A DNA stretch of 64,000 nucleotides from Gammaproteobacteria bacterium. GTDB taxonomy: Bacteria; Pseudomonadota; Gammaproteobacteria; JAJPIJ01. The notes under the pieces are model-generated. The model worked only from the letters and a program-made list of their open reading frames with translations. It ran no database searches and was not told where the DNA came from. Below, in pieces: positions 1 through 6,183 of this stretch; within the stretch, counting starts at the first letter, position 1; every line of letters begins with the position of its first letter. The DNA lies in NCBI GenBank assembly GCA_021324815.1, contig JAJPIJ010000051.1:2188-66187 (forward strand), in the 5' to 3' direction. The position numbers were made by a program, and so were the translations under genes.

Positions 1-32
1 CTGCCGCGGGTGGAGAAACAACCGCCTCCCGC
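1..32. repeat. 32-bp direct repeat, copy 1 (ctgccgcgGgtggagaaacaaccgcctccCgc), at window edge
   Basis: Near-identical copy at 1099-1131 (30/32 nt, same orientation). Followed by a short imperfect inverted repeat (aacaaccgcc...ggcggcgttt). Confidence 0.8.
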
Positions 33-304
33 CGCATGAAACAAGGCGGCGTTTGCATTTGTCGCGGATTCGGAACACACTGCCCGGGCATCTCGCCTGA
101 CCCCGGCCTCTTGCCCTGCCCTCCATGGTGGAGAGGCATGCTTCCCCCGGAAGCTCCTGAGTAAATCAGAGACTCCCGAACCGAAACGACCGGCCCTGCG
201 GAGGGCGTCACGCCTGAAGTCACTGGCTGACGAAATGTCGTCCGTGGATCGGCGCGCGCCCGGAGCACGCCCGTTCCATCTATCCGCCACAGGAGATCCC
301 ACCG

Positions 305-988
305 ATGAACGCCACAACGAGCCCCCACCCCACAGTGACCCTTGCCGATGTGCATCAGGCCGTCGCCCAGGAAATCGAGGCTGTAAAACGTGATGTTGGC
401 GATAAAGACTTTGCAGCGGGCGTTGGACTGAAGATGAACGCCTTCACCGAGTTGTTGAAGGCCTTTGAAACAGGCCGCAACAGGATACTTGAGAGCAAAG
501 ATCCGGCGCAGGGCGACAAAAGCGCGCAGTTGAGCAAGCTTGCCGGCGATACGTACAACACCATGATGACCTTTGTAAATGGACTTCGATACCGGCAGCA
601 GGCCACGGCGCTCGCCGCGGAACTGTATAAAATGCCGGGCGAGGCCAGGTCCACTGATACGGTGCTGGAGTTTCTGAAACAGCAGGAGTTGCGCGGCCTG
701 CTACGGCAGAAGAGCGCGGCCGAGGTCGAGGCGATCTATCACCAGGCCGTCGAGGCAGGCAACGCCTTCATGATTCTCGCGATTGAAGGAGACCCGTTGG
801 GCTCCCTCATTTCGCCGGCCATTGTTGAAGACGGGCGGAGGCGCAACGCCGAAAAGGCCCACCCCGTACAATCCAGGAAAATGAATGATATTTTGAGGGC
901 CCAACGCGCCTTTGACACGGTCATATCCAAGGCCATGCTGGCCATGGGTCTGCGCCCCACCAGCGCCGTCGGAAAAGCCGCCGCCTGA
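305..988 (+). CDS. hypothetical protein (227 aa), no recognisable domain
   Basis: Long ORF with high-GC codon usage and non-repetitive composition. Bracketed by the two 32-bp direct repeats. Confidence 0.5.
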   Translation: MNATTSPHPTVTLADVHQAVAQEIEAVKRDVGDKDFAAGVGLKMNAFTELLKAFETGRNRILESKDPAQGDKSAQLSKLAGDTYNTMMTFVNGLRYRQQATALAAELYKMPGEARSTDTVLEFLKQQELRGLLRQKSAAEVEAIYHQAVEAGNAFMILAIEGDPLGSLISPAIVEDGRRRNAEKAHPVQSRKMNDILRAQRAFDTVISKAMLAMGLRPTSAVGKAAA

Positions 989-1098
989 TCGTTACCTCAT
1001 CTCGTCCTTGTGCGCGCCGGCACTCTGGACGATTCTGAAATTCCCATGCCAGAATAATGGTCAGGACATCTATGACCTCGGCCCCGGCCTGCTTCGAT

Positions 1099-1131
1099 CC
1101 AAATCTGCCGCGTGTGGAGAAACAACCGCCT
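1099..1131. repeat. 32-bp direct repeat, copy 2
   Basis: Matches 1-32 with 2 mismatches. Lies at the junction between high-GC DNA and the low-GC gene 1175-2428. Confidence 0.8.
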
Positions 1132-1174
1132 CCTGCTGCTTAAACAGTAAAACAAACAACAACATCAGAACCAC

Positions 1175-2428
1175 TTAACTTTTGCTTTTATCCTCTTCCT
1201 TAAGATCCTTAGGAACTTGCCACCAAGACCCCCTGCGCTTATGAACCCTTCGCTCAATCGAAACCATCTCTACATTATCAGTGGCAGAACTGAGCTGGCC
1301 GAGCTGCGCTGTTGGCGCGTCTGTGAAGCGTTTTAGGCGATCAACTAATTTCTTTTCCTTAACTGGATCCAGTGGAACTCGCGGCTTTCTATCACGCCAA
1401 GGTTGCAAATGCCGATCCCATAGCTGGCACACTAAAAAGTCGCCGTCTTTGGGAGGATCGGAAGCAAAAGACATTATTCCTTTCTCCCTTTCAGCATCGG
1501 ATACTCCAGAGTAATATTCGTTTAAAGCTTTGAGATCAGCCTTAAGGTCTTCACCCCATATAAACTCTTGGTCAGAACGCAAATATATAGGTGCACAGCG
1601 GCGATGCAGTTTGTCGGAAGAGATGAAAACCATACAAAACGGAAGATAAAACAAGTATCCAACATCCACTCGATTTGATGATCGTTCCGAAGAAATAAGA
1701 TTGGCAGCAAGGGTAATCTGAAAAAATACCTCTACACTCACCGCATGAGCTGCGTAAGGTGCATAAACAGAAAGTGGTTTGTATCCAGCCACACTCCATC
1801 TCTCAAGAATTGGACGCTCATATTGACGTGGGATATTGAAAAGGAAAGAGGCTATTTTCATTTGATCAAAGTGCTTGCCATCAGCACTCACGACGGCATC
1901 AGCGAGCCGTTTTGCCTCTTCAAGAGACTTACATGTCTGAGGGGTAATTCCAAACGATTTCATTCCTTCCGCAACAACCTTTAAATCCATGGCGGCGAGA
2001 GAAGCCCGCCAGTTATGAGCAAACTGACGTTCAACTTCTAAAAATTCACCATTCTGCCAGCGAGAAAACGCTCGTGCTTCCGCTGGGGCGTCAAAGATAA
2101 TTCCTTGCTTGCCATCAACATCGACAGGCCGGCCACCTGCAAACGGTATGCGTCCGTCCATTGGAACTGGATATCCCCTAAGACTTGCTACAGCGAGGCG
2201 CGAGTGGTGAGCACACGGGCCGCCCGACATCTCTGGTGTCTTATAGGCAATGTTTCCCACCTCTTGTTCAGGAGTACGGCCCTCTCGAACAGCTTTTTCA
2301 AGATCTGCGAGAGTTTCTACAAAGAACAAGGGCGATATAACGGGGTAAAAAAAGTGATCAAATAAGACCGCCTCGTCTACGCTCAGAGACTGGAGGAAGG
2401 ACTTATCGAAAAGAGCTATTGGACCCAA
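1175..2428 (-). CDS. hypothetical protein (417 aa) encoded by a strongly low-GC segment; candidate laterally acquired orphan gene
   Basis: Uninterrupted 1.25-kb ORF. Local GC is visibly far below flanking DNA (AT-rich codons, AT-rich 3' flank ttaaacagtaaaacaaacaacaac). No motif I can assign. Confidence 0.55.
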   Translation of the reverse strand: MGPIALFDKSFLQSLSVDEAVLFDHFFYPVISPLFFVETLADLEKAVREGRTPEQEVGNIAYKTPEMSGGPCAHHSRLAVASLRGYPVPMDGRIPFAGGRPVDVDGKQGIIFDAPAEARAFSRWQNGEFLEVERQFAHNWRASLAAMDLKVVAEGMKSFGITPQTCKSLEEAKRLADAVVSADGKHFDQMKIASFLFNIPRQYERPILERWSVAGYKPLSVYAPYAAHAVSVEVFFQITLAANLISSERSSNRVDVGYLFYLPFCMVFISSDKLHRRCAPIYLRSDQEFIWGEDLKADLKALNEYYSGVSDAEREKGIMSFASDPPKDGDFLVCQLWDRHLQPWRDRKPRVPLDPVKEKKLVDRLKRFTDAPTAQLGQLSSATDNVEMVSIERRVHKRRGSWWQVPKDLKEEDKSKS

Positions 2429-2475
2429 ATTGAACTACTCAAATCTATTTTGGGTCAGCTCAAACCACATTTTAT

Positions 2476-4146
2476 TTAATTTGGGATGGATTCGATTCGG
2501 CGATACAGCCAGCCGCCGATGTAAAAAGATATGCCGACCACGATCAGTGTGCCGATCCTGACCAGCGGCGAGGATGATCCCAGGTCGTAGAACAGCACCT
2601 TGCCTGCCGAGATGGCGAAGATGAGCAGCGAGGATTGCCCCAACAGTTTGTCCTTCCATCTCAGCGATGCCAGCAAACAGCCCAGCGCCAGCACGCCCCA
2701 CGCCATCGAGACGGCAATCCGGCCGGTGAACAAATGCGTGGCCGCCGCGATTGCGGCCAGATGTCCGGCGAAGAGCAGCAACGGCCACGCGCCTTTCGCC
2801 GCATTCGCGCGGCGCGCCCAAATATATCCGCCGTACAACTCCGCGGGGTACAGGACGGAGAGCGCGTCCGCGCCGACCACCGCATGGCGATCGTAACCGG
2901 TGACAATACGAAGGTAGTTGATGATGAAGATGATGAACACCGCCAGCCAGACGAAAACGCCCGCTGCCGAGAGCTTGCCTCTGAACATGCCGTATGCGGC
3001 CGTCACCGGCAGCACGATGAGTCCCACCCACGGCATCCAGGCCTCGGGCACGGATTCCAGATAGCCGGCGTGGAAGATCACCAGCGCGATGTACGCACCG
3101 AGCAGCATCCGCCCGCCGGGCATGTCGCGCCTCAAGATGGCTTGCGCCACCATGTATATGCACGCGAGCACGGCGGCGCTTCCCACCGCCACCCACGGCG
3201 CATAGGCGGGAATGTGCCTGTCCAGCAATTGGTATTGCAGCACGTAGAAGATGAGCAGCGCCGGCAGGTGCGCGGTGGCGGCGGATTCGCTCATCGGCAT
3301 CATGCGGCGCACGGAGTAAAGCGCCGCGGCGCCGGCGAAGATGAGCAGTTGCACGGCCTGGAATCCCACCGCGGTCAACCACTGCTCGCTGTGGCCGCTG
3401 TCGCGCCACGCGGCATCGAAGCCGATCAGCGCCAGGTAAAGCGCCAGCAGATACACCGAGCGCGTGCCCACCCGGATTGAAAACCAGCAGAACACCACGC
3501 TCCAGCTGGAGTAATAGATGGCGAGGTCGGACACGTCCAGAAATATGCTGTGGAGCAGGAAGGGCGCGGAGTAGGTGCCCGCCACGGCGAAGAAGGCGTA
3601 GAGCGTGCTCTGGAACGCCTGGCATAACCACAATGACAGCACGCAGATCAGGAGCACGGCGGATAATGCAGCCGATGCGCCGATGAACGCGTAGTAAAGA
3701 TGCGCGCCATAGACGGATAGAAAGAGGATGACCACGCCGCCCGCGGGCAGCAGGCCCGCATAAGCGCGGTCGCTCCCGCGCAGCGCCCAGCCGACGCCGA
3801 TCATGGCGAAGGCGGATAACACGGCCAGCATGATCTGCCGCTCCGGCGTGAGCCAGCCGGACACCAGCGCCAGCTTGATGACGTAGGACGCCGCCAGCAC
3901 CAGCGCGGTTGCTCCGCCCCATCCCAGCAATTTCGTGGCGAACGACGGGCCTTCCTGCTCGACCCGTTCGGGTGCTTCGGGCGTGACTGCGGGTTTGGAA
4001 ACCGCCGGTGAGGTTGCCTGCGGCATGCTCGGCGCCGCTGCTGACGGTTTTCCCTCTGGCGTCATTTCAGGCTTGAAGCCGAGCCATGACTCCATCTTTT
4101 CCAGCCGCGCTTCAATCGCCGCCAGCCGCTGTTCAATCTCCGCCAT
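2476..4146 (-). CDS. DUF2339-type polytopic membrane protein with N-terminal coiled-coil
   Basis: N-terminus MAEIEQRLAAIEARLEKMESWL, Pro/Ala-rich linker, then more than 12 predicted hydrophobic helices. The overlapping antisense ORF 2435-3922 is rejected as a GC artefact. Confidence 0.6.
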   Translation of the reverse strand: MAEIEQRLAAIEARLEKMESWLGFKPEMTPEGKPSAAAPSMPQATSPAVSKPAVTPEAPERVEQEGPSFATKLLGWGGATALVLAASYVIKLALVSGWLTPERQIMLAVLSAFAMIGVGWALRGSDRAYAGLLPAGGVVILFLSVYGAHLYYAFIGASAALSAVLLICVLSLWLCQAFQSTLYAFFAVAGTYSAPFLLHSIFLDVSDLAIYYSSWSVVFCWFSIRVGTRSVYLLALYLALIGFDAAWRDSGHSEQWLTAVGFQAVQLLIFAGAAALYSVRRMMPMSESAATAHLPALLIFYVLQYQLLDRHIPAYAPWVAVGSAAVLACIYMVAQAILRRDMPGGRMLLGAYIALVIFHAGYLESVPEAWMPWVGLIVLPVTAAYGMFRGKLSAAGVFVWLAVFIIFIINYLRIVTGYDRHAVVGADALSVLYPAELYGGYIWARRANAAKGAWPLLLFAGHLAAIAAATHLFTGRIAVSMAWGVLALGCLLASLRWKDKLLGQSSLLIFAISAGKVLFYDLGSSSPLVRIGTLIVVGISFYIGGWLYRRIESIPN

Positions 4147-4161
4147 GTGCCCCCCTCCGCA

Positions 4162-4623
4162 TCAAGTGAAGCGCTCGGTGAATGACTCCTTCTTCCACCC
4201 GTGTCCGAAGCGCCGCAACGCCTGATAAACGGCCATGCGTTGAAAGCTGGTCGCGCCCAGATCGGCCATCGCCTCGTTGGCCAGGATGTTGTCGGCGTCC
4301 CTGCGCGTCAAGGCCGTCTGGCGGCCGTCCTCCAGCGTGACCACCCCTTCATACTGATAGAGAACATCGTTCACCCAGCCGCCAAGTTCGATGCGCGGAT
4401 CGTCGCTGGCCATGAAGATCGACCACGCAAACTGGGGAATCGACGCGAGATCGGACACGTATCCCTGCGGCACCGTGATGATGCCGCCCGCGATGTCGCT
4501 GCGGAACCGCAGCGGGACCTGGAGAACGAACAGGGCCACGCTGAGCGGCTTGCCCTGGGCCCGCAATTTCCATGGCGCCAGTTGCAGCGACACGTCGCCG
4601 TCGATGTCAAAGAAACGGTTCAT
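4162..4623 (-). CDS. DUF1353 family protein (phage/prophage-associated small protein)
   Basis: 153 aa. Motifs FDIDGDVSL and VPQGYVSDLASIP are reminiscent of DUF1353. Assignment is from memory of the family. Confidence 0.45.
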   Translation of the reverse strand: MNRFFDIDGDVSLQLAPWKLRAQGKPLSVALFVLQVPLRFRSDIAGGIITVPQGYVSDLASIPQFAWSIFMASDDPRIELGGWVNDVLYQYEGVVTLEDGRQTALTRRDADNILANEAMADLGATSFQRMAVYQALRRFGHGWKKESFTERFT

Positions 4624-4653
4624 TATTCGCGGCCTTCAACCCGCCCGGACTGC

Positions 4654-5889
4654 TCACTTCTTCCGCTCGGCGCGGGCGATGGCCTTGAGGTCGGCGCGCT
4701 TGAGTTTCTTCGCGGCGCGCTGCTCGCTGCGGTGGCCGCGGCGATCCTCGCGCTTGAACGCCTTCTTCTTCGCCTTGGAGCCGTAGATCTGCTTCCACTT
4801 GCCGTTCTTGAAGATGATCTGGTAGCCGCCGGACAGAATCTGGAACGGCTCCCTCACCTTCTTCATTTGATCGAACTGTACTGATCCCGGCTTGTGGAAG
4901 GCCTCGAAGTACGCCGGGAAGACAAAGTCCGTCATGGGGATGCCCTTCACCGGGAAGCTCAGCGCCTCGACCGGATCGGCGCTTTCGTAGGCATACATCA
5001 GTTTCGGATCGGGGCCGGTGGTCATCATGTTGATGGCCGGGTCGACCAGCATCTCCACCAGCTCGTGCGAGGCCGACACGCTCACCAGATCGTTGTTCTT
5101 GATCGTGGTCTTCACGAACACCTTGGCCTGCGGCAGGCCGTCCGGCGTGAGATCATGGTAGGCGAGCGCGCCGGGCTGATCGGCGTCGTCGAGAAACACC
5201 ATCGCCCAGGCGCCCTTGATGAAGCCGTCGGACTTGACGAGTTTGGCGGGCGTGCCCCACACCGGCGCGACGTAGTCGTCGATGAACGCCTGCATGGCGG
5301 CGATCAGCTTGTCGAAGTTGACGCCCAGTTTGGTCTTCGCCCTGTTGAAGCAGGCGATGGTGGGCACGCCGCCTTGATTGAACGCGCCGCGTACCGGCGG
5401 CTTGCCGGCGGCGTGGCGCGGTCTGGCCGTGCGCCGGCGGGCTGGAGTTCCGGTCGTCATTTCCGCAATCGGAGGGCGGGGCGTCTGCGACGGCTTTGCG
5501 GCGGGCAGCGGCTCAACCTCGATTTCAAGCACGATGAGTTCGGTCGGCGGTACATCTTCAAGTTTGGCGAACAGCGCCTCGAACGCCTCCCGTGTGCCGC
5601 CGATGGTCTCCTGTTCCATGGTCCGGCCGACTACTATGCATCCCCCGACATCCCCCGCGCCGTTGCCTGGATGCAGGTACACGCCTTCGAAACCCGGCAC
5701 GTTCTTAAGATGCGGCAGCGGGCGCTGGAATTTCTGGGAAAAGTCGATCACCAGATCATAGATGCCCGCGGGAATGGCGCCGGCGCCGGTCTTCTTCTCA
5801 AATGTCAGGCATTCGTATTCGCCGTTGACATATAGTTCGCCGATCGCGCCCTGGTCGGTGAATTCCTTGCGTATGAGTTTCAATTCCAT
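4654..5889 (-). CDS. hypothetical protein with N-terminal L,D-transpeptidase(YkuD)-like fold motif and Lys/Arg-rich C-terminal tail
   Basis: Start taken at MELKLIRKEF (ATG 5889), preceded by GAGGGA SD. Motif HPGNGAGDVGGCIVVG resembles the YkuD H...GC(I/V) catalytic signature. C-terminus KAKKKAFKREDRRGHRSEQRAAKKLKR. Confidence 0.45.
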   Translation of the reverse strand: MELKLIRKEFTDQGAIGELYVNGEYECLTFEKKTGAGAIPAGIYDLVIDFSQKFQRPLPHLKNVPGFEGVYLHPGNGAGDVGGCIVVGRTMEQETIGGTREAFEALFAKLEDVPPTELIVLEIEVEPLPAAKPSQTPRPPIAEMTTGTPARRRTARPRHAAGKPPVRGAFNQGGVPTIACFNRAKTKLGVNFDKLIAAMQAFIDDYVAPVWGTPAKLVKSDGFIKGAWAMVFLDDADQPGALAYHDLTPDGLPQAKVFVKTTIKNNDLVSVSASHELVEMLVDPAINMMTTGPDPKLMYAYESADPVEALSFPVKGIPMTDFVFPAYFEAFHKPGSVQFDQMKKVREPFQILSGGYQIIFKNGKWKQIYGSKAKKKAFKREDRRGHRSEQRAAKKLKRADLKAIARAERKK

Positions 5890-5890
5890 G

Positions 5891-5934
5891 TTTTTTCCCT
5901 CGTGCTGGATGGTTTTTTCCCTCGTGCTGGATGG
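5891..5934. repeat. perfect 22-bp tandem duplication (ttttttccctcgtgctggatgg x2) covering the ribosome-binding region of the YkuD-like gene
   Basis: Units 5891-5912 and 5913-5934 are identical. On the minus strand each unit carries GAGGGAAAAAAC immediately 5' of the ATG. Confidence 0.9.
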
Positions 5935-6183
5935 AACGGCCGGCATCAAGAAACGGCTGGACAACAATCGTCACGCCGAAAACACGCGTCAACGGCGCGC
6001 GATTCATGTCACAGATGATGAACGCCCCCCGATGGTATTGGGTCTCTTCCTCACTGAGTCCGGGTTTTTATTCTGAAAGTTAATTTACCCCTGTGACTTC
6101 GAAAAATCATCAACCTTGCGGCAGCGGTAACGCGCGGGTTCGCACTGTTTTCGCGCGTGGGTATCGGGTCGTGAAATATCTTG

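Follow-up and report, generated by a model that had tools for sequence, protein, structure and literature searches.

In a chromosomal slot of variable content, a single-gene cassette gained by horizontal transfer encodes a member of a large unnamed family with a proposed split PIN-like core

The PIN-like superfamily is defined by a conserved core consisting of the strands S1 and S2, the crossover helix H4 and the strand S4 (PMC5499597). The acidic residues of the active site occupy fixed places in this core: an Asp follows S1, a second acid is found on the helix behind S2, a third at the N-terminus of H4 and a fourth after S4, and the site is supplemented by Ser/Thr and Asn/Gln residues (PMC5499597). 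Three groups of this superfamily are of particular relevance here. DUF4935 (PF16289; Matelska et al. 2017, PMC5499597) is a VapC-group, PIN-like family of bacterial proteins of about 350–400 aa, usually encoded by monocistronic genes. Their PIN-like core is N-terminal and carries, behind S2, a long insert made of helices; their C-terminal part is without known homology. The Shigella VapC (PF01850, PDB 3TND) shows D7 after S1, E42 after S2, D98 on the crossover helix, and T114 and E119 after S4. In the FEN-like 5' nucleases a helical insertion lies over the active site of a PIN-like core (PMC5499597); these enzymes have about seven acidic residues and two metal sites.

The locus described here is situated at the beginning of the window, i.e., the whole 64,000-nucleotide stretch of DNA that was analysed, in the slot between a DUF2339 gene and a GFA-family gene. 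The following features were recognized, with positions given in the window:

1–41, plus strand: true 3' end of the GFA-family gene (PF04828), ending in LPRVEKQPPPAA and a stop codon; contains the first copy of a direct repeat
305–988, plus strand: 227-aa gene, function unknown, convergent with the 417-aa gene and located between both GFA 3'-end copies
1000–1144, plus strand: decayed GFA duplicate, frameshifted, covering the C-terminal ~48 codons (..VRAGTLDD.. / ..CFDPNLPRVEKQPPPAA and a stop codon)
~1133–2473: swapped cassette; DNA homology to the related locus L086 ends at both edges
1175–2428, minus strand: CDS of the 417-aa protein, TTG start at 2426–2428, stop at 1175–1177; member of a large family without a name
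2422–2456, minus strand: inverted repeat with 8-bp arms (2422–2429 and 2449–2456) and a 19-nt loop
2476–4146, minus strand: native DUF2339 membrane-protein gene, upstream boundary of the slot

The original prediction had singled out the 1.25-kb ORF at 1175–2428 as markedly AT-rich and as a likely recent horizontal acquisition, and had proposed a GC and codon-usage plot as a check. The composition was clearly confirmed. The GC content of the 417-aa gene was 0.470 compared to 0.630 in the rest of the window, with values of 0.42 to 0.53 in sliding 300-nt windows inside the gene, and the GC3 was 0.40, half that of the neighbouring genes (0.80–0.85 for DUF2339, DUF1353, DUF5675, adh_short and MlaC). 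The homologues share the same opening, MGPI.LFDKSF, and the TTG start is therefore correct. The stop codon of the co-directional DUF2339 gene was located 47 nt upstream of this start. No sigma-70-like promoter and no intrinsic-terminator-like site were found in the 900–2700 region, and no inverted repeat or terminator-like element was found downstream of the gene. In the simplest model, the 417-aa gene would probably be expressed by read-through from the upstream operon. The inverted repeat at 2422–2456 is predicted to fold into a hairpin in which the TTG start codon is paired; this hairpin showed no conservation at the other loci of the family.

The genes upstream had been considered phage-associated, one of them as YkuD-like. 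The latter matched DUF5675, and the DUF5675-DUF1353-DUF2339 trio showed a native GC3 and a synteny that was kept in relatives with an 81–86% identical DUF2339. These are therefore native chromosomal genes, and the hypothesis that the trio is a prophage remnant was rejected on the basis of both observations. The characterised member of DUF1353 is a phospholipase A2 (PMC11525133). No tRNA or Rfam element that could serve as an integration target was found within the window.

The gene order ThiS-BNR-MlaC-(adh)-DUF5675-DUF1353-DUF2339 ... GFA-aconitase-MnmA was shared with relatives of the host, and the content of the slot between DUF2339 and GFA differed from one to the other. In the window, the GFA remnant and the 227-aa gene accompanied the 417-aa gene in the slot. 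In L086, the flanks of which are ~90% identical at the DNA level, the slot was occupied by another AT-rich segment of 775 bp (GC 0.43) with a 223-aa ORF on the opposite strand, giving a weak, sub-threshold match to CAP12/Pycsar-TIR. A third AT-rich gene, partial (190 aa) and cut by the contig end, was present in L091 (DUF2339 86% identical), and it may be cyclase-like. Neither of these two cargo proteins had a match in the PDB. In L092–94 (DUF2339 81% identical) the slot held a Y-family polymerase gene of native GC, directly followed by GFA.

The homology between the window and L086 broke at position 2474, 2 nt past the DUF2339 stop codon, and at approximately 1132, at the end of the GFA remnant. 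The tightness of these breaks indicates that the exchanged unit is a single-gene cassette covering ~1133–2473. In a comparison with relatives, as the original prediction had suggested, three related genomes with kept flanks lacked the 417-aa gene at this slot, whereas a native gene would have been expected there with native composition. Both the foreign composition and the differing content of the slot between conserved flanks argue for horizontal acquisition. Horizontal acquisition, which had been predicted, is thus well supported, and ~1133–2473 can be described as an acquired single-gene cassette in a chromosomal slot of variable content. A similar bias was visible across the family, the genes of which averaged 0.05 GC below their flanks at 77 other loci, and 0.10–0.17 below in high-GC hosts. 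No attC-like or other conserved recombination site was found flanking the gene across the loci, which does not correspond to an integron cassette, and no 8-mer was common to more than five of the 79 upstream or 77 downstream flanks.

The protein had been called an orphan without a nameable domain. The second part of this description was borne out, as no match was found in Pfam, NCBIfam, PHROGs or PADLOC with the full 417-aa protein, nor in a PDB sequence search. The first part was not: judged by sequence, the 417-aa protein is a member of a large, widely transferred and strongly conserved family without a name. More than 2,345 homologues were retrieved by a word-indexed search, and the best 120 of them were 53–71% identical, nearly all of ~415 aa, annotated as "hypothetical" and devoid of Pfam domains. 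An exhaustive profile search at E ≤ 1e-3 returned 2,328 clusters (50% identity), including 950 at E ≤ 1e-30. The 80 genomic loci retrieved (45–61% identity to the window protein) came from Nitrospirota, Acidobacteriota, Planctomycetota, Chloroflexota, Bacteroidota, Myxococcota, Desulfobacterota, Poribacteria, Dormiibacterota, Binatia, many Proteobacteria and two archaeal MAGs. Sequence conservation across phyla was very high (45–70%) and the spread was patchy, as the patterns used gave 134 matches in 185,579 species genomes. The family was found in none of 50,697 phage genome records; the 72,556 plasmids contained a single decayed fragment of it, and three loci were detected in 2.9 million viral contigs. 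The reading as a phage or prophage gene was rejected, given the absence from these phage records, the few viral-contig loci and the syntenic native genes on the flanks.

An AlphaFold2 model of the 417-aa protein was built on a 47-sequence alignment (pLDDT 85.8, pTM 0.86). The N-terminal part consists of a strand (4–7), two helices, a strand (28–31) and a helix (33–44). It is followed by a mostly helical insertion of ~200 aa (~49–246) with one hairpin inside. The C-terminal part shows a helix (251–264), a strand (267–270), a helix (273–282), a strand (288–291), a helix (292–307), and a tail that ends with a conserved and confidently placed KRKGSWWQ.PKDL motif. In this model, the four short strands that lie outside the hairpin have only one another as pairing partners. 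We propose that the core is a single Rossmann-like alpha/beta domain made from two segments (~1–48 and ~250–310), with the following elements:

Segment 1: S1 = 4–7, followed by D8; S2 = 28–31; helix 33–44 with E38 and D42
Segment 2: crossover helix 251–264 with N252 and D255; S4 = 267–270 with S270 and D272; S5 = 288–291

No S3 strand was predicted in the model. In 110 members that are 32–40% identical to the window protein, the residues D8, K9, S10, E38, W124, D255, Y258, S270 and D272 were invariant wherever aligned, and H75, W140, R141, H275, Q287 and K296 were nearly so. D8 was present in 108 of 108 aligned sequences, and E38, D255, S270 and D272 in 111 of 111 each. On the helix before S4, N252 was mostly conserved and R253 was conserved in at least 90% of the sequences. 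Coevolution was analysed by mean-field DCA with 248 sequences and 57,630 pairs. The coupling between positions 5 and 269 ranked third of all pairs with a score of 2.29, compared to maxima of 1.49 and 1.88 after column permutations, which ignore phylogeny. The couplings 6–32, 271–292, 34–254 and 30–253 pointed in the same direction, but fell within the permutation tail. The 5–269 signal supports the pairing of S1 with S4, and a parallel register at 5/269 would place D8 beside D272.

The positions of the invariant acids can be compared one by one with the definition of the PIN-like core. D8 immediately follows the strand 4–7, where an Asp is expected just after S1. E38, on the helix 33–44 after the strand 28–31, occupies the place of the acid that is found after S2 or, in VapC-like proteins, on the next helix. 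D255 lies near the start of the helix 251–264 preceding S4, i.e., at the start of H4 if the assignment of this helix is accepted. S270 and D272, at the end of 267–270, correspond to the Asp or Glu, often accompanied by Ser/Thr, that follows S4. Because D8, E38, D255 and D272, together with S270 and N252, match the PIN-like definition one-to-one, we propose that the protein works as a metal-dependent nuclease with a split PIN-like core. The tetrad D8, E38, D255 and D272, with S270 and N252, would form a putative catalytic site at the C-terminal edge of the sheet, and the metal would be Mg2+ or Mn2+. The ~200-aa helical insertion and the conserved C-terminal tail may control substrate access or activation. 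We infer a PIN-like catalytic mechanism, nucleic-acid substrates and a defence role; the putative nuclease would act alone, either in defence against phages or mobile elements or as a toxin.

Among described families, DUF4935 resembles the 417-aa family in overall plan, with a proposed PIN-like core at the N-terminus, a long helical insert after S2, a C-terminal part without known homology and an acidic tetrad following the same positional logic. It differs in that the ~200-aa insert of the 417-aa family divides the core and displaces H4, S4 and S5 to 250–310, in the lack of a predicted S3, and in that the family gave no match to the PF16289 HMM, even at E ≤ 10 on cores from which the insertion had been excised. 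The likeness to the Shigella VapC is found in the individual residues: D8 corresponds to D7, E38 to E42, D255 to D98, and S270-x-D272 to T114..E119, with a similar spacing between H4 and S4. Unlike VapC, the 417-aa protein is three times larger, is encoded without an adjacent antitoxin gene, and yielded an hhalign probability below 5% and no Foldseek match. With the FEN-like enzymes it would share a PIN-like core covered by a helical insertion. Four acids are invariant in the 417-aa family, in contrast to the larger number in FEN-like nucleases, and no similarity between them was detectable.

PIN similarity was found by no search. Pfam returned no PIN family with the full protein, with the spliced core of the window protein, or with 85 diverse spliced cores at E ≤ 10; with the spliced cores only noise was observed (e.g., SRR1 in 3 of 85). 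In hhalign comparisons with the PF01850 (VapC) alignment the probability was 0.1–4.9%, the VapC profile being narrow (Neff ~2). The PDB was searched at sequence and profile level with the protein, with the family alignment and with two alignments restricted to the core, and nothing credible came up. Foldseek with the whole model, in which the core is split by the 200-residue insertion, gave as its best PDB hit TrpRS (E 0.15, probability 0.1) and listed no PIN domain; no significant match (E < 0.1) was obtained in BFVD. Structure prediction had been proposed as a way to reveal a housekeeping fold, and none was assigned. The reading that we favour, in which an acquired cassette carries a family with a PIN-like core acting as an Mg2+/Mn2+-dependent nuclease and a lone conflict effector (defence or toxin), is tentative, and we give it a probability of roughly 0.45.

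The genomic neighbourhoods of the family gene are relevant to its role. In L096 it lay within an integrated element, between an AIPR gene and an MmeI-type restriction–modification (RM) gene. In L098/99 its neighbours were a complete type I RM, an Mrr nuclease and a Prim-Pol, and in L097 it was part of a conjugative element with VirD4, a relaxase, IS21 and a serine recombinase. In three Limnobacter species it lay 92 nt downstream of an OLD-family ATPase-TOPRIM gene. Schlafen/AlbA_2, PLD-like, HNH, IIG RM and MobA/TraI relaxase genes were further neighbours across the loci, and solitary insertions among housekeeping genes were seen in L100, L102 and the window. No conserved partner gene emerged: after clustering of 886 neighbour ORFs, no cluster was present in more than 5 of the 80 loci. 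VapC genes were not found in the fetched family loci. A VapBC-type type II module was rejected, as no neighbour cluster exceeded this number of loci and, in the window, no ORF separates the DUF2339 stop from the start codon of the 417-aa gene. The proteins of some members were extended at the C-terminus by fusions of several kinds, namely two DUF5677-like lineages, an HExxH-containing domain, a unique 460-aa tail and SEC-C. Shuffling of C-terminal domains is typical of conflict proteins. The DUF5677-like tail of one protein (P0036) was modelled as an all-helical bundle (pLDDT ~60–85); this model had no match in the PDB, and the other fusion tails had no PDB sequence match. In the literature, DUF5677 is reported to be enriched on recombinase-linked defence contigs, and the one gene tested gave no phage protection.

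In several respects the locus resembles stand-alone defence or abortive-infection (Abi) cargo genes, as an AT-rich single-gene cargo with different cargo in the slot of sister strains, RM, AIPR, OLD and Schlafen genes as frequent neighbours of the family, and shuffled C-terminal domains. It also departs from known defence cargo. The search of defence models suggested in the original prediction, run with PADLOC-DB 2.0 (5,027 models), gave 0 families at E ≤ 0.1, so that no model matched the protein, and defence neighbours were present at only part of the loci, with defence-HMM matches in only a few of 138 flanking proteins. By analogy with such genes, a defence, abortive-infection or toxin role of the 417-aa protein is plausible. 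A mobile-element-serving role is a live rival. The protein could be a nuclease-like effector of a selfish kind (an addiction toxin, or a factor of inter-element competition or DNA processing) which hitch-hikes into hotspots. The location in the conjugative element by IS21 and the serine recombinase, the MobA/TraI relaxase neighbours, the transposase remnants adjoining other family genes, and the vicinity of Prim-Pol and DnaB genes of integrative elements all point in this direction, as do the very high conservation across phyla and the failure of known defence models to match. However, neither an antitoxin-like or partner gene nor flanking repeats or sites were conserved, the gene is usually single copy, it is missing from the phage genomes counted above and occurs among the plasmids as one decayed fragment only, and many loci, the window included, are without mobility genes nearby; we consider such a role rather unlikely. 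A native or housekeeping gene of odd composition, or a non-functional ORF, would be consistent with a gene that is co-directional with the upstream operon, 47 nt behind it and without promoter- or terminator-like sites of its own. This explanation is highly improbable given the absence of the gene from this slot in the three relatives, the patchy spread and a GC3 half that of the neighbours, and a spurious ORF is excluded by the strong purifying selection seen along the full length in thousands of homologues.

With regard to mechanism, the main rival to a PIN-like nuclease is a HAD-like or other Rossmannoid phosphoesterase. The same acquired cassette would then encode another metal-dependent phosphoryl-transfer or hydrolase enzyme: a HAD-like or Toprim-like phosphoesterase, or an enzyme that acts on nucleotides or small molecules. 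Several kinds of Rossmannoid hydrolase carry acids at the C-terminal ends of parallel strands that lie next to each other, and the failure of every search to find PIN similarity is in keeping with such an enzyme. The D8-K9-S10 segment after S1 is similar to a known variant of HAD motif I, DKT(G), and motifs III and IV of HAD enzymes might be imitated by R253 ahead of S4 and by S270-S271-D272 behind it. Nevertheless, motif I of HAD proteins has a second Asp, which the D8-K9-S10-F11 sequence lacks, position 32 at the end of S2 varies between C, S, T and A where HAD proteins would have a conserved Ser/Thr, and the model shows a helix directly after D8, with no squiggle or flap. Membership in the HAD-like phosphatases was rejected, since neither the DxDx(T/V) pattern of motif I nor the S2 Ser/Thr was found. 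The invariant E38 and D255 have no role in HAD or Toprim schemes, yet they fall exactly at PIN-like positions, and no HAD or Toprim match was obtained in Pfam, PDB or Foldseek. We regard this class of enzyme as quite unlikely. As assignments for the conserved motifs, PD-(D/E)xK, Toprim, TIR, SIR2 and receiver domains were rejected for a mismatch in motif order or secondary structure.

Returning to the PIN-like nuclease, a bolder version can be formulated, in which the family is an unrecognised PIN-type branch without counterpart among solved or viral-predicted folds and constitutes a new single-gene system against phages or mobile elements, spread over at least a dozen bacterial phyla and archaea, with the insertion and the docked tail serving as sensor or autoinhibitor. 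We find it doubtful in this complete form. If the PIN-like assignment is true, thousands of "hypothetical" genes of environmental bacteria and archaea would encode metal-dependent nucleases with a split PIN-like core, and the defence-system catalogues, which now miss the family, would gain a new single-gene candidate. Even without a defence role, a large, conserved and confidently modelled family absent from Pfam and from structure libraries is worth curation and biochemistry. The slot itself is a clean natural experiment, with near-identical flanks and four different contents, and shows how small cargo is exchanged at a chromosomal hotspot where neither mobility genes nor repeats are recognisable.

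A 32-bp direct repeat had been noticed, and the 417-aa ORF had been placed between this repeat and the DUF2339 stop codon. The repeat does exist, but it measures 40 nt with 88% identity between the copies at 1–40 and 1105–1144, and the second copy is the last 40 nt of the ~145-nt decayed GFA duplicate. The two copies do not flank the 417-aa ORF, which is abutted by one copy only; they bracket the 227-aa gene. The GC3 of the latter gene was intermediate (0.71). It was kept in L086, as a 230-aa version, despite the different cargo there, and is therefore not linked to the 417-aa gene.

The slot, which is the chromosomal site between the DUF2339 gene and the gene of the GFA family, varied in content downstream of DUF2339 among related genomes with conserved flanks. 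The occupants seen in three of them were the following:

L086, 329–1103: AT-rich 223-aa ORF with a weak match to a CAP12/Pycsar TIR domain (E 0.004)
L091, 8680–9250: AT-rich gene, incomplete at the contig end
L092, 8732–9943: Y-family DNA polymerase gene of native GC

On the GFA side, sequence comparison distinguished two copies of the same gene end, and the window also holds a compact group of genes on the DUF2339 side:

Window 1–41: true 3′ end of the GFA-family gene
Window ~1000–1144: decayed, frameshifted duplicate of this gene end, about 48 codons
Window 2422–2456, minus strand: 8-bp inverted repeat, GACCCAAA / TTTGGGTC, with a 19-nt loop
Window 2476–5967: DUF5675-DUF1353-DUF2339 trio, with gaps of 15 and 30 nt
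Window 5890–5933: perfect 22-nt tandem duplication, GTTTTTTCCCTCGTGCTGGATG twice

A 227-aa gene (window 305–988) with an intermediate GC3 of 0.71 lies between the true GFA end and its decayed duplicate. The same layout was present in L086 and missing from L092-94. This arrangement resembles the trace that an earlier insertion into the 3′ end of the GFA gene would leave.

The trio has a native composition and its synteny is kept in the relatives. TtaP, the characterised representative of DUF1353, is a phospholipase A2 (PMC11525133); DUF5675 features in a lysin-discovery preprint. The three genes may form an envelope-related module, as opposed to being phage genes. The 22-nt tandem duplication lies just upstream of the likely DUF5675 start (MELKLIRKEF), where it doubles a Shine-Dalgarno-like GAGGG stretch on the coding strand of this gene.

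In the predicted fold of the start region of the 417-aa gene (−60 to +15, −16.6 kcal/mol), the 8-bp inverted repeat pairs the TTG start codon. This pairing was not conserved across the other loci of the family, where the start codon was paired in 24 of 79.

The only surroundings of the family gene seen to be conserved in several genomes were those of three Limnobacter loci (L037, L038 and L042, 3951–7710), in which a gene for an OLD-family ATPase-TOPRIM protein lies 92 nt upstream on the same strand and a gene for a 4-fold beta-flower protein 91 nt downstream. Two family members, P0218 and P0214, have a C-terminal extension in common, which had no match in Pfam or PDB. The P0218 extension carries the HExxH motif AHELLH, a hint that a metallopeptidase-like domain may be fused there.

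WYL/WCX regulators and PIN-domain proteins are common in defence or TA contexts. On the host contig, past the left end of the window and about 8 kb from the cassette, lie a gene for a WYL/WCX-domain regulator and a PIN-domain gene (L001 19760–21254).
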